The position numbers and the translations under genes are program-made. Shown here piece after piece: positions 1 through 63,594 of a stretch of DNA of 64,000 nt (its first letter is position 1; each line of letters starts with the position of its first letter). The DNA is from Octopus vulgaris (lineage: Eukaryota). The stretch lies in contig OX597827.1 of assembly GCA_951406725.2 (NCBI GenBank), positions 40,610,001 to 40,674,000 of the forward strand. The letters run 5' to 3'. The notes under the pieces are model-generated. The model ran no database searches and was not told where the DNA came from. It was given only the letters and a program-made list of their open reading frames with translations.

Positions 1-27
1 GTTGCGCATTTGTTATGCTTATCAAAA
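1..27 (-). ncRNA. Partial hammerhead-like motif (U3-A8 variant family), cut by the window edge
   Basis: Reverse complement reads TTGATAA-gcat-aacaa-atgc-GCAA-c, identical to the motif at 21552-21576; (TA)n follows from 81. Confidence 0.5.
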
Positions 28-76
28 TTTTTTTTAAGAGAGAAAGAGTTCCTTTCTGATAGATTTTTTCCTCTTA

Positions 77-130
<54 letters not shown>

Positions 131-3901: not shown

Positions 3902-3920
3902 TATATATACATAGCAAAAA

Positions 3921-3958
3921 CTGTCTGATGAACGGCAACGAGAAACTCAGAGTAACAG
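3921..3958 (+). ncRNA. Minimal type I hammerhead ribozyme
   Basis: ctgt-CTGATGA-a-cg-gcaa-cg-a-GAAA-ctcagag-TA-acag. Stem I ctgt/acag, stem III ACTC/GAGT, GUA site; lies in an ~80-bp island next to (TA)n. Confidence 0.7.
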
Positions 3959-3990
3959 ATTTTGTTGAATTTTCTTCTGCTTTAAATAAA

Positions 3991-6395: not shown

Positions 6396-6858
6396 ATCTC
6401 CGAAATAATAAGGGTAATAGGCACACACACTCACACACACATCTAACCCAGTTTTACCAACAAGCTAACAATAAGATATACATCAGCCTTACCAAAAGCA
6501 GATATTAGAATAATCAACAATGTCCAACATCAAAAAGATAATTCTCTCAAAACCAGGGCAGCTTCTTATCTGTCTTTTTGGTACAATTCCAAGAGGTATC
6601 ACATTGTTGAAAGCGACAAATAACAAAGAAAGCTGCAAACTCATACAATCTAATATAAAGAACTGCTGTCCATATATTTCGAAATAGCTATTAATGGATG
6701 TTTTGAAATTTGTAAGACCTTTTCACCCATCATTAACACAGAAATCAATGTAATTCTACACACTAGAAAGAAAAAAAAAACGAATTATTCTGCGACAATA
6801 ATATGGATTAAGAAACGCTAAGAACGAACTCTACGTTTGATATTAGTATATTAGTATA

Positions 6859-7090
6859 GGCGGCGAGCTGGCAGAAACGTTAGCACGCCGGGCGAAATGC
6901 TTCGCGGTATTTCGTCTGCCGTTACGTTCTGAGTTCAAATTCCGCCGAGGTCGACTTTGCCTTTCATCCTTTCGGGGTCGATAAATAAAGTACCAGTTTC
7001 GCACTGGGGTCGATGTAATCGACTTAATCCGTTTGTCTGTCCTTGTTTGTCCCCTCTATGTTTAGCCCCTTGTGGGTAGTAAAGAAATAG
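6859..7090 (+). mobile_element. SINE-A, full length, tRNA-derived (tail type i), with TSD
   Basis: A-box-like tggcagaaacgttag, B-box-like gttcaaattcc; direct repeat gatattagtata on both flanks; multiple copies in the window. Confidence 0.9.
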
Positions 7091-21319: not shown

Positions 21320-21368
<49 letters not shown>

Positions 21369-21480
21369 AAAAATATTAAAAAGGAGATGTGGAACACGAG
21401 TTGTGATATATAAAAAAGGAAATGAAGAAAATGCTGACAAAATAATTTAAGTAATTTAAGTAATTTAATTAGGTGAAAGT

Positions 21481-21524
21481 TCTTTTTACCGGTTGCGCAT
21501 TTGTTATGCTTATCAAAAAGAGAG
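21481..21524 (-). ncRNA. Hammerhead-like motif, U3-A8 variant (left arm)
   Basis: Reverse complement of the motif at 21544-21587. Confidence 0.55.
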
Positions 21525-21543
21525 ACAGATATGCCATCTCTAT

Positions 21544-21587
21544 CTCTCTTTTTGATAAGCATAACAAATGCGCAACCGGTAAAAAGA
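21544..21587 (+). ncRNA. Hammerhead-like motif, U3-A8 variant (right arm)
   Basis: tcttt-TTGATAA-gcat-aacaa-atgc-GCAA-ccgg-TA-aaaaga. Stem II gcat/atgc, palindromic stem III ACCGGT. Confidence 0.55.
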
Positions 21588-21649
21588 ACTTTCACCTAAT
21601 TAAATTACTTAAATTACTTAAATTGTTTTGTCAGCATTTTCTTCATTTC

Positions 21650-21713
<64 letters not shown>

Positions 21714-21740
21714 TTTATTTAAAGCAGCAGAAAATTCAAC

Positions 21741-21787
21741 AAAACTTATTACTCTGAGTTTCCCGTTGCCGTTCATCGTACAGTTTT
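21741..21787 (-). ncRNA. Decayed hammerhead, same family as 3921-3958
   Basis: Reverse complement aaaactgt-ACGATGA-acggcaacgg-GAAA-ctcagag-TA-ataagtttt; island 21711-21791 is flanked by (TA)n. Confidence 0.55.
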
Positions 21788-21790
21788 TGC

Positions 21791-29969: not shown

Positions 29970-30275
29970 TTTCGAATTTTGGTACAAGGCCAGAAATTTC
30001 AGGGGACGGAGTAAGTCGATGTGATCAAATCCAGTGCTCAATGGGTACATAATTTATCGACCCCCGAAATGATGAAAAGCAAAATCAACCTTTTGGGGGG
30101 AGGGGGCTAGTCAATTAGATCGACACCAGTACGCAACTGGTATTTAATTTATCGACCTCGAAAGGATGAAAGGTAAAGTCGACCTTGGTGGAATTTGAAC
30201 TCAGGATGTAAAGACAGACGAAATGTCGCTAAGCATTTTGCCCAGTGTGCTAACGATTCTGCCAGCTCGCCGCCT
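29970..30275 (-). mobile_element. SINE-A with duplicated 3' part
   Basis: Homology to SINE-A; two consecutive type ii-like tails. Confidence 0.75.
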
Positions 30276-31186
30276 TTTGAGCCGGAATAGGTATTGCAAT
30301 GCATCTCGTCCGACATTCTGACAGTTTACACCAACACATTGCCTTGGACTGGATACCTTGTCTTTTTTTATTTATTGCCATCGATCCCGAAATGAAAGAA
30401 AAAAAGCCAAAGTTGACTTCGGCGAGATTTGAACTCACAGACGCCTTACTGCAAGGCATCTCGTCAGACGTAACAGTTCCGCCAATCCATTGTGCTTAAT
30501 TGGTATTTTATTTTATCGATTCCGAAATGAGAAAACTCAAAGTTGACCTCGGCGTGATTTGAACTCAGACAGTCGACACAAATATCAATCGCATCATTCT
30601 CCGGGGTTAAACTACAACAACAAAAATAACGGCACACGACGTTTATGCTGACCACAACGACGACTACCACCACAACTACTATAACCGCTACCGCTACCAA
30701 CCCGACCATAACCACAATCGCCAACATCAACATAGTAACAGTCGAATCAAGGGGTGAGTCTCTCTATGTGGTCGTTGAACATACTAGAAATAGCAGCCAA
30801 CGTAGTTTTATTAACAAGAAAGAATATATTGACATACGCAGCCGTTGATACACAGCCTTTTAAAATAAGGAAGGATCGCCACGACTATTGTGCTTTTAGT
30901 CGTATGACAGCTGGATCAGGGTTGACCTAGGGCTAAACAACAACAACAGTAAACTATGAACTGCTTGTCCATGATCCGCGCTACAACTGCCACAGCTCCT
31001 ACAACCATAAGGACTGTTGCCACTCCCATTGTTCATGACTTCAGAGCATAACCCACACCGCCGTGCGTTCAAATATTCTACACACAGAGGTAACTGTCAT
31101 TATATAACAGGTTCATTGTATGGAAAGAGCTAAAAATACCAATCGTCATCGTCATCGTCGTCGTCATTATTACCACCATCATCATC

Positions 31187-35017: not shown

Positions 35018-35085
<68 letters not shown>

Positions 35086-35096
35086 ATTATATAGAA

Positions 35097-35150
35097 GGAG
35101 TTCTACAGGACTAGAACTGTTTCATTCAAGAGAAATCTTCAGGAAGCTCC
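35097..35150 (-). ncRNA. Type I hammerhead ribozyme (left arm)
   Basis: Reverse complement ggagcttc-CTGAAGA-t-ttc-tctt-gaa-t-GAAA-cag-ttctagtc-ctg-TA-gaactcc. Confidence 0.7.
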
Positions 35151-35194
35151 TGAAGATTTCTCTTGAATGAAACAGTTCTAGTCCTGTAGAAGCT
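35145..35194 (+). ncRNA. Type I hammerhead ribozyme (right arm)
   Basis: agctc-CTGAAGA-tttctcttgaat-GAAA-cag-ttctagtc-ctg-TA-gaagct. Stem III ACAG/CTGT, GUA site. Confidence 0.7.
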
Positions 35195-35277
35195 CCTTCT
35201 ATATAATAAATTAATTTTACTCTGCTATGTATTGAGTACCTTATTTACTGTGGTTAACCCCGAATCAACCCGGGACC

Positions 35278-39234: not shown

Positions 39235-39468
39235 CTTATTTCTTGATTGCACACAAGGGGCTAAATACAGAAGGAACAAACAAGGCCAGACAAAGGAATT
39301 AAGTCGATTACATCGACACCAGTGCGTAACTGGCACTTAATTTATCGGCCCCGAAAGGATGAAAGGCAAAGTCGACCTCGGCGGAATTTGAACTCAGAAC
39401 GCAGCGGCAGACGAAATACCGCTGAGCATTTCGCCCGGTGTGCTAACGTTTCTGCCAGCTCGCCGCCT
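39235..39468 (-). mobile_element. SINE-A (tail type i)
   Basis: Reverse complement homologous to 6859-7090; flanked by gattcacaaaacgtttct / gattctcaaaacgtttct (probable TSD). Confidence 0.85.
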
Positions 39469-40327
39469 TGATTCTCAAAACGTTTCTGCCAATCTGCCAC
39501 CCTAGCGGTGTGTATTATAATGACATAAACATTATGGCGATGCAATGTTACTGAGATAAATTACATTATTGTACTATATCTTATGGCAAAGCTTTATAGT
39601 GATATATTATAACGACATACCATTATAATAGAACATTATCGTAACGTTGTGGTTGTGGTGACATAACCCTATAATTACAACGCTACTGTGACATATTTTT
39701 AGAGGTACGAAACTGTGAAAGGATGCATGAGTGTATGCATGTGCTTGCGCTACTTATAAAGAAACATCCAATGTGTACAAGCGATAGAACATGGGAGTAG
39801 AATTTGGCGTCACAAATACTGTCCTTTAGAAAATGTACGAAATGCATTTTATAAATGCAATCATTAACACCGGTTGCTGGAACGTTAAACAGATAAGAAA
39901 TGAGTGTTCTCTGTAGATGTGATATTATTTGGCCTTTGCAGCCCCATTCCAGTTGACGTCAGCTTTGGGAATGGATATGATATTGGGCTGTCAGCTACTA
40001 GATCTTAAGTTCAAATGTTATAAATATTTTGTTGGGATTTGCCTTTTCTCTCTCTGCTTCTTTCTCTCTGTCTCTTTCTCTGTTTCTGTCTGTCTGTCTG
40101 TCTCTCCTGCTTTTTTTTTTCTCTGTCTCTCTTACTTTCTCTCTCTCATCTGCTTTTCCTCTCTCTCTCCGGCTTTCTCTCTCACTCCTGCTCCCTCTCT
40201 CTCCTACTCCCTCTCTCTCCTACTCCCTCTCTCTCCTACTCCCTCTCCCTCTCCTGTTTTTTCTCTCCTTCCTGCTTTCTGTGTGTGTGTGTGTGTGTGT
40301 GTAAGTATGTATGTAGATGTGTGTGTA

Positions 40328-61442: not shown

Positions 61443-61805
61443 ATTTGGGGGATGGGGCTAGTCGATTACATCGACCCAATTTTCACTGGTACTTAATTTA
61501 TCGACCCCGAAAGGATGAAAAGCAAAGTCGACCTCGGCGGAATTTGAACTCAGAACGTAGCGACAGACGAAATACCTATTTCTTTATTACCCACAAGAGG
61601 CTAAACACAGAGAGGACAAACAAGGACAGACAAACGGATTAAGTCGATTATATCGACTCCAGTGCGTAACTGGTATTTAATTTATCGACCCCGAAAGGAT
61701 GAATGGCAGAGTCGACCTCGGCGGAATTTGAACTCAGAACGTAACGGCAGACGAAATACGGCTACACTTCGCCCGGCGTGCTAACGATTCTGCCAGCTCG
61801 CCGCT
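61443..61805 (-). mobile_element. SINE-A dimer (full type i copy plus headless type ii copy)
   Basis: Body repeated at 61465-61575 and 61643-61760. Confidence 0.85.
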
Positions 61806-62650: not shown

Positions 62651-63594
62651 TGTTTTAGTGATGAGGCAACCTTTCATGTTTCACGGAAACTGAGCGAACA
62701 CAATATGAGAATGTGGGGATCAGAACCATCCCCCCCCCCCACGTAACTAGAGAAGTTCAGCGAGATAGTCCCAAAGCGAATGTCTGGTGTGGGATTATGT
62801 GCAATCGAATTATTGGTCCATTTTTCTTCAACGAGAGATCAATTACTGCAAATGTCTAGCTTGACCTTGTGATTGAATATGTGGCTCCACAACTCCAGGA
62901 CCTTCAACCGACCATCATCTTCCGGCAAGATGGTGCCCCACCACATTGGAGATTGTATGTTCGTGAAATAAGGCGTCGAGCTGGCAGAAACGTTAGCACG
63001 CCGGGCGAAATGTATAGCCGTATTATGTCAACCGTTACGTTCTGAGTTCAAATTCCGCCGAGGTCCACTTTGCCTGTCATCCTTTCGGGGTCGATAAATT
63101 AAGTACCAGTTACGCACTGGGGTCGATGTAATCGACTTAATCCTTTTGTCTGTCTTTGTTTGTCCCCTCTGTGTTTAGCCCCTTGTGGGTAGTAAAGAAA
63201 TAGATTGCATGTTCGTGAATTCCTTAATCAAATATTTCCAGACCGTTGGATTGGAAGGGGAGGACCAATTACGTGGCCACCACGTTAATCACGTTCTATG
63301 GGGCTATGTTAAAGATATCGTGTATCAAACAAAGATACGGGGTATTACTGAACTAAAATAACAGATTCGATCGCAAACATTGATAAGGCTATGTTACAGC
63401 GAACATGGCAAGAAATCGAGTACCGTTTTGATATGGATCGTGCGACTAATGGTGCCCATATAGAGGTGTATAAAAGGAAATAAAAAAAACTTTGAAAACC
63501 ACTGAGTACGATAGAATAAGTCTGATTAAGATATTTTATCAATTGCCTTTGTGATAAATTTTTTAAATTGTAAAAAGACTTTATGGACACCCCG
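62651..63594 (+). mobile_element. Tc1/mariner-superfamily transposase pseudogene interrupted by a SINE
   Basis: CFSDEATFHV...NVWCGIMCNRIIGPFFF...FRQDGAPPHW...FPDRWIGRGGPITWPPR...WGYVKDIVY; right TIR ...tttatggacaccccg|TA. Confidence 0.9.
62972..63203 (+). mobile_element. SINE-A (tail type i) with ~17-bp TSD
   Basis: Flanked by gattgtatgttcgtgaa / gattgcatgttcgtgaa. Confidence 0.92.

Follow-up and report, generated by a model that had tools for sequence, protein, structure and literature searches.

We consider it probable that the palindrome at 21415-21653 is a pair of 5'-truncated 3' ends of a Penelope-like element (PLE) family, here called family A, which lie head to head and likely arose together when a (TA)n tract was hit by a single insertion, and that the predicted hammerhead of its arms, with a U3-A8 pair and a C at position 13 (C13), is a motif that likely cuts slowly in vivo. 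Coordinates without a locus label refer to the window, which is the whole stretch of 64,000 nucleotides analysed here.

The arms at 21415-21525 and 21543-21653 paired at 110 of 111 positions, the sole mismatch being 21443/21625. The pairing ran on to the centre at 21534 with two further mismatches (116 of 119 positions in total). The original prediction had described arms of about 110 bp with one mismatch, each read outward from the centre as TTGATAA, stem II, GCAA, CCGG and TA, and both statements were confirmed. Stem II has 4 bp (GCAT/ATGC), and this string is read from 21552 on the plus strand in the right arm and from 21516 on the minus strand in the left arm. The identical core and stem II segment that had been placed at 1-27 was found as well, with all 27 nt identical to the arm. 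It belongs to a separate, unpaired copy of family A (1-81, minus strand) whose core is the same and which runs past the window edge with a full core and tail.

The left arm (21415-21525, minus strand) was identified by alignment, copies and parent loci as a 5'-truncated 3' end, or pseudo-LTR piece, of family A. It is prolonged at 21378-21414 (minus strand) by a 37-nt PLE tail, which was recognised from parent loci and inverted pairs and is of a type described in PMC11167929 and PMC8557442. The right arm (21543-21653, plus strand) is a tail-less 5'-truncated 3' end of the same family and is followed by (TA)n. This one-sided tail argues against a mirror artefact. Between the arms, 21526-21542 is the head-to-head junction of the two truncated copies, with an imperfectly paired centre. 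The (TA)n microsatellite at 21654-21712 is the likely insertion target, in line with the (TA)n preference given in PMC8557442, and a second (TA)n tract lies at about 21322-21365.

A transcript of the palindrome was predicted to fold into a single hairpin (-175 kcal/mol), which agrees with the long hairpin anticipated for it. Since the sense motif is paired to its own antisense in this hairpin, the palindromic copy is predicted to be inert, with no cutting. The two motifs cannot form an active dimer together because they lie on opposite strands. A-to-I editing had been suggested as a check, and its sequence footprint did not appear in 204 arms, where 9 A>G vs 12 T>C changes gave no A-to-G excess. 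The core letters showed no alternative at 5% in contigs of 4 public runs, which carry four other organism labels.

The searched genome was a 2.8-Gb, microsatellite-rich animal assembly. A DNA search with the arm returned 486 candidates, and the 55 scored matches were 92-100% identical, many of them being inverted pairs with differing spacers. One copy ran upstream into a reverse transcriptase (RT) and GIY-YIG frame, and a protein search revealed many frames with 95-99% identity, plus a sister family at 76-77%. When ten loci with the intact 784-codon frame were fetched, the motif was located about 720-870 nt past the stop codon on the same strand in all ten; four of them were direct tandems of about 4.47 kb and two had an inverted 5' copy. 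The family has about 1900 copies, and exact matches to its 26-letter core numbered 1876.

In the parent locus (L054), Pfam found GIY-YIG (E 2.6e-6) and RVT_1 (E 7.9e-7), the latter at 29.4 bits with a cut-off of 29.6. The parent frame has DKG and YLDD motifs, a CX4CxxC linker ahead of GIY-YIG and CCHH in the endonuclease, which fits the definition of the Neptune/Nematis clade (CX2-5CxxC and CCHH). The features of EN+ PLEs that we looked for were found, namely RT with a C-terminal GIY-YIG, tandem or inverted pseudo-LTRs with 5' truncation, and the optional tail, which usually sits on one end. Exactly one arm was tailed in 14 of 15 inverted pairs and none had two tails, and inverted pairs with different junctions were found on many chromosomes. 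PLEs have been described as leaving inverted truncated copies, with a tail of 30-40 nt on one side, in (TA)n targets (PMC8557442), and the tail has been explained by two start sites of reverse transcription (PMC11167929). The arm is the 3' end of a young PLE, and its linker points to the Neptune/Nematis type, the clade being assigned by this motif and not by a tree. The palindrome itself is an ordinary inverted pair of PLE ends. Of the original claim of a palindrome with two divergent hammerheads, the two opposite-strand hammerhead homologues stood, and the notion of a unit in its own right gave way to a routine by-product of PLE insertion.

Several further properties of the family were seen. 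In family A and its sister, family B, an ORF1 of 431 aa (A) or 411 aa (B) overlaps the RT-GIY-YIG frame by -1 (L060:959-2251, L070). The overlap contains the slippery heptamer T TTT TTA at the 12 (A) and 10 (B) junctions found, and no hairpin was detected downstream of the heptamer in either family. Copies of family A that are otherwise nearly identical differ strongly 10-25 nt upstream of U3, where loop I and the 5' strand of stem I lie, and many tight palindromes of the family centre on a self-complementary A/T run in this region. We also considered a non-LTR retrozyme, which is defined by head-to-tail, non-coding tandem units of 170-400 nt with a canonical type I hammerhead. This identity was rejected since the arms are head to head and part of a 4.47-kb coding unit, not tandem non-coding units.

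The predicted minimal type I hammerhead of the right arm spans 21549-21587 (plus strand), with U3 at 21552, A8 at 21557, G12 at 21572 and C13 at 21573. Stem II lies at 21559-21571, the palindromic stem III at 21575-21580, and stem I has three A-U pairs by the core. The predicted cut falls between 21581 and 21582. The mirror motif (21481-21519, minus strand) has U3 at 21516, A8 at 21511, C13 at 21495 and a predicted cut between 21487 and 21486. The three-way layout of a hammerhead was present, with a G10.1-C11.1 pair in stem II, the palindromic stem III and an NUH site. The Watson-Crick 3-8 pair was also kept: 149 of the 150 arms that cover position 3 have U3, and all 162 that cover position 8 have A8, although some of the loci had been selected with patterns in which A8 is preset. 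Stem I should have 4-6 bp and close at 2.1-1.1 in a minimal type I hammerhead. We found three contiguous A-U pairs in the window copy and two in intact elements, and longer pairing was obtained only via a bulge or a shifted register. In the lowest-energy dimer of the arm, U3, U4 and A17 were paired, which is an inactive register.

Standard searches had been expected to miss such a motif, and they did: an Rfam scan of 21535-21660 gave no hammerhead match at E<=10, and a scan of the whole window gave no hammerhead among the best 150 matches listed. When the arm was shuffled 20000 times by mononucleotides, 3 of the resulting sequences satisfied a relaxed hammerhead descriptor with these features.

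At the corresponding place, all eight loci of family B (77% aa identity) carry U3-A8 and a GAAA box; their stem III is the same, while stem II, also of 4 bp, has another sequence and stem I pairs better. In family D, which has about 55% aa identity, we likewise found U3-A8, GAAA and the same stem III, with stems I and II that are different but paired, and in further families other paired stems surround the same core. Genome-wide, U3-A8/GAAA with the same stem III gave 3441 matches vs 20 for a reversed control. Since sister families keep the core while their stems differ yet pair, the motif is, judged by its sequence relatives, a minimal type I hammerhead homologue, a consensus variant rather than a consensus member. 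The U3-A8 pair is not new. It has been described in the PLE hammerheads of Schistosoma (PMC4209133) and in other natural hammerheads (PMC3088659), and it is common in this genome. A retrozyme-like 358-nt tandem unit in the same genome also has a U3-A8 type I hammerhead, with a 6-bp stem I (L154:4519 and 4877; L153, L155, L165).

The second change in the core is the loss of A13, which is invariant in the GAAA box. Among the 1876 exact matches to the family-A core, position 13 was C in 1857, T in 16, G in 2 and A in 1. These matches upheld the claim that U3-A8 and C13 are family-level changes. Because families B and D carry A13, C13 is by sequence comparison a derived state in family A. We also looked for siblings in which this core is followed by a different 3' flank and obtained one match, which does not make a family. 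C13 also occurs in family C, a distant PLE (36% aa over 620 residues) with its frame upstream on the same strand. A hand tally of the first 100 of its 283 matches gave 44 C, 56 A and no G or T at position 13. The main states in 58 arms from hand-picked loci were C3-G8-C13 (30), U3-A8-A13 (11), C3-A8-C13 (6) and U3-G8-A13 (5). Taken together, C13 likely arose twice, in separate PLE lineages, and is not a specific compensator of U3-A8.

Family C is older, and its subfamilies switch between C3-G8/C13 and U3-A8 or U3-G8/A13 (L107-L113, L122-L151, L166-L185). Most of them have a C-C mismatch at 10.1/11.1, so C13 may mark relaxed selection. In family A, the fixation of C13 alone is no sign of selection because all copies stem from a small number of masters. 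Two further candidates for C13 families were dismissed as chance matches, as they lie inside coding sequence that is LINE-like by its motifs and have no PLE end anatomy.

Changes of A13 cost 10-100 fold in model hammerheads and are milder than changes at C3, G5, G8, G12, A14 or A15.1 (PMC4075628, citing earlier mutagenesis). A natural C13 core was not found in the literature searched. One may nevertheless be in print already, most likely in the work of Lunse et al. 2017 on PLE hammerhead variants, or else in the supplement of PMC4209133 or in structural and mutational studies. What is of interest here is a fixed and apparently recurrent C13 in a young coding family, combined with a few precise junctions.

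These junctions were found by reading every copy whose sequence turns foreign immediately 5' of the predicted cut (38 matches) or, as a control, within a stretch of stem II (22 matches). True 5' junctions amounted to nine events at the cut and 13 in the control, so there was no excess of 5' truncations at the cut over this control window. Six of the nine begin exactly at position 1.1 and keep four A's; the remaining three have five A's on at least one arm. The partners at the cut differ from copy to copy. One copy has the 3' end of U6 on both arms (52.5 bits in Rfam) and another a near-complete U6atac (80.6 bits), and each of these ends at the base before 1.1. In a third copy, a piece that we take to be the 5' part of a SINE is fused on both arms exactly at the predicted cut (the U6, U6atac and SINE fusions are L201:1386-1529, L202:1392-1504 and L211). 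Other partners were a short unassigned piece on both arms (one copy) and locally duplicated sequence (one). In the control, the neighbour was the (TA)n target or the partner arm at 12 of the 13 junctions.

No U6-type sequence was found elsewhere in the 262 loci examined. The comparison of U6-type fusions covers the cut window, the stem II control and these loci, and cut vs control gave a Fisher p of 0.16 (2/10 vs 0/14; on recount 2/9 vs 0/13). Hammerhead cleavage leaves a 5'-OH at position 1.1. A cyclic phosphate is found at the end of both U6 and U6atac, and the ligase RtcB can link U6 to RNA with a 5'-OH (PMC6789731). On few events, the sequences at the cut-site junctions suggest cleavage in vivo; if RT jumped from the end of a cleaved template, an identical junction would result.

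Small deletions also cluster at the CCGG(TA) of stem III immediately before the cut; 20 of 38 matches have one, compared with 4 of 22 control matches (a binomial test on 20 of 23 gave p of about 1e-7). We rejected them as a cleavage footprint, as many keep U16.1 and A17 and 19 of the 20 are in inverted pairs. Several copies with these deletions also have scattered deletions, and the CCGG deletions are often found on both arms (L186-L215, L238-L241). They point to hairpin-dependent sequencing error or repair.

The family-A hammerhead could instead be a dead relic, with C13 and the weak stem I carried along by a master copy that no longer needs cleavage, and with U6-type junctions that arose by RT pausing or a cellular nuclease at the A-run. 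We regard this as unlikely, although a good deal speaks for it. The motif departs from the consensus in three ways (U3-A8, C13 and the weak stem I), truncations at the cut are not in excess, and the descent of the copies from few masters means that fixation shows no selection. Cleavage is also unneeded for insertion in vitro (PMC11167929), and Naiads thrive without canonical hammerheads (PMC8557442). Against a relic, the six junctions keep exactly four A's, which places the break behind A17, where a hammerhead would cut, rather than behind the U, and U6 and U6atac are not homologous to the sequence that they replaced. Furthermore, C13 was found in two lineages, whereas G13 and T13 were found in no subfamily seen.

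The same precise break could also be made in trans, by the A13 hammerhead of another family that shares stem III, with the C13 core serving as a substrate. The 3441 U3-A8/GAAA motifs with the same stem III palindrome would supply such partners. However, the stem I 5' strands of family B, family D and the retrozyme-like family, which were the ones compared, end in G, C and G and give no Watson-Crick pair with A1.1, and a single one of the 1876 family-A cores has A13, so we find cutting in trans very improbable. Still harder to credit is that the palindrome is a fold-back artefact of the assembly or a MITE-like hairpin element unrelated to retrotransposition. No contig of the 4 public runs covers 21522-21545, and some tight family-A palindromes show clustered deletions that resemble hairpin-dependent errors. 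Nevertheless, three mismatches and the tail distinguish the two arms, inverted pairs with different junctions occur on many chromosomes, and the sequence of the arm forms the 3' end of an element with RT.

Under the reading that we prefer, a truncated PLE pair with a slow hammerhead, the element protein would nick AT-rich, (TA)n DNA. Reverse transcription would then start at two adjacent sites of the RNA, and the two short cDNAs would be joined head to head. Reverse transcription from two adjacent sites would leave one arm with the tail and one without. In tandem full-length transcripts, two motifs would pair via their self-complementary stem III and cut after A17. This cleavage is probably slow and protein-assisted; help from a protein is probable in view of the weak stem I and of the cost of A13 changes stated above. 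The 5'-OH product would sometimes be joined to cyclic-phosphate RNAs by an RtcB-type ligation, or RT would jump, and the product would then be inserted. One PLE hammerhead, of an Anolis element, needs the PLE protein to cut, and in the same work cleavage was dispensable for insertion in vitro (PMC11167929). More tentatively, and with confidence a little short of even, we propose that C13 is a working natural core at which PLEs arrived independently two or more times, in one lineage together with U3-A8 and in another with C3-G8, that it cuts in the germ line with the protein probably acting as a chaperone, and that the U6, U6atac and SINE-like fusions at 1.1 record this cutting.

Metazoan PLE pseudo-LTRs are known to hold minimal type I hammerheads, including the U3-A8 Cercyon of Schistosoma mansoni (Cervera and de la Pena 2014, PMC4209133). 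Family A resembles them in the pseudo-LTR position, the short palindromic stem III that needs dimers, the short stem I, the U3-A8 covariation and opposite-strand pairs 100-700 bp apart. Unlike these hammerheads, it has C13 in place of the consensus GAAA, no extra base between 9 and 10.1, a 4-bp stem II and only two or three A-U pairs in stem I by the core.

With the Neptune and Nematis EN+ PLEs (Craig et al. 2021, PMC8557442) family A shares an RT followed by a C-terminal GIY-YIG, the CX4CxxC linker, tandem or inverted 5'-truncated copies, a 30-40 nt tail at one end and (TA)n targets. Families A and B have a separate ORF1 that overlaps RT by -1, whereas the abstract of that paper gives a single ORF. 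Two RT start sites, AT-rich targets and a protein-assisted hammerhead, as proposed here, are likewise described for the PAc Poseidon element of Anolis (Frangieh et al. 2024, PMC11167929), which differs from family A in its clade, its canonical core and a hammerhead that overlaps the ORF start. The fusions resemble the U6/LINE-1 and U6atac/LINE-1 chimeras (Moldovan et al. 2019, PMC6789731) in joining a U6 or U6atac 3' end with its U-tract to a 5'-truncated retroelement. The L1 chimera junctions vary in position, whereas both family-A ones sit at the predicted ribozyme cut.

Other repeats were noted in the window and the loci. A second palindrome at 35085-35215 has two hammerhead-like motifs with a canonical C3-G8/GAAA core, a 4-bp stem III with an 8-nt loop, and U-U at 10.1/11.1. 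Two ends of another PLE-like family lie between (TA)n tracts at 3912-3990 (plus strand) and 21712-21790 (minus strand), the core being canonical in the former and decayed in the latter. A dispersed repeat of about 240 nt, which we assume to be SINE-like, has five copies (6858-7089, 30109-30276, 39237-39479, 61571-61767 and 62960-63203). A 5S rRNA-like copy was found at L225:125-243 (69.5 bits).

Whether the weak minimal hammerheads of animal PLEs cut in vivo is a live question (PMC4209133, PMC11167929). With its roughly 1900 copies, intact frames and a changed core base, family A and its A13 sister form a matched natural pair for studying core tolerance and protein assistance, and fusions of the U6 type make ribozyme activity readable from genome sequence. 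If our proposal is true, position 13 would be more flexible in protein-assisted ribozymes than the mutagenesis of naked RNA suggests, and searches based on GAAA would overlook whole active families.
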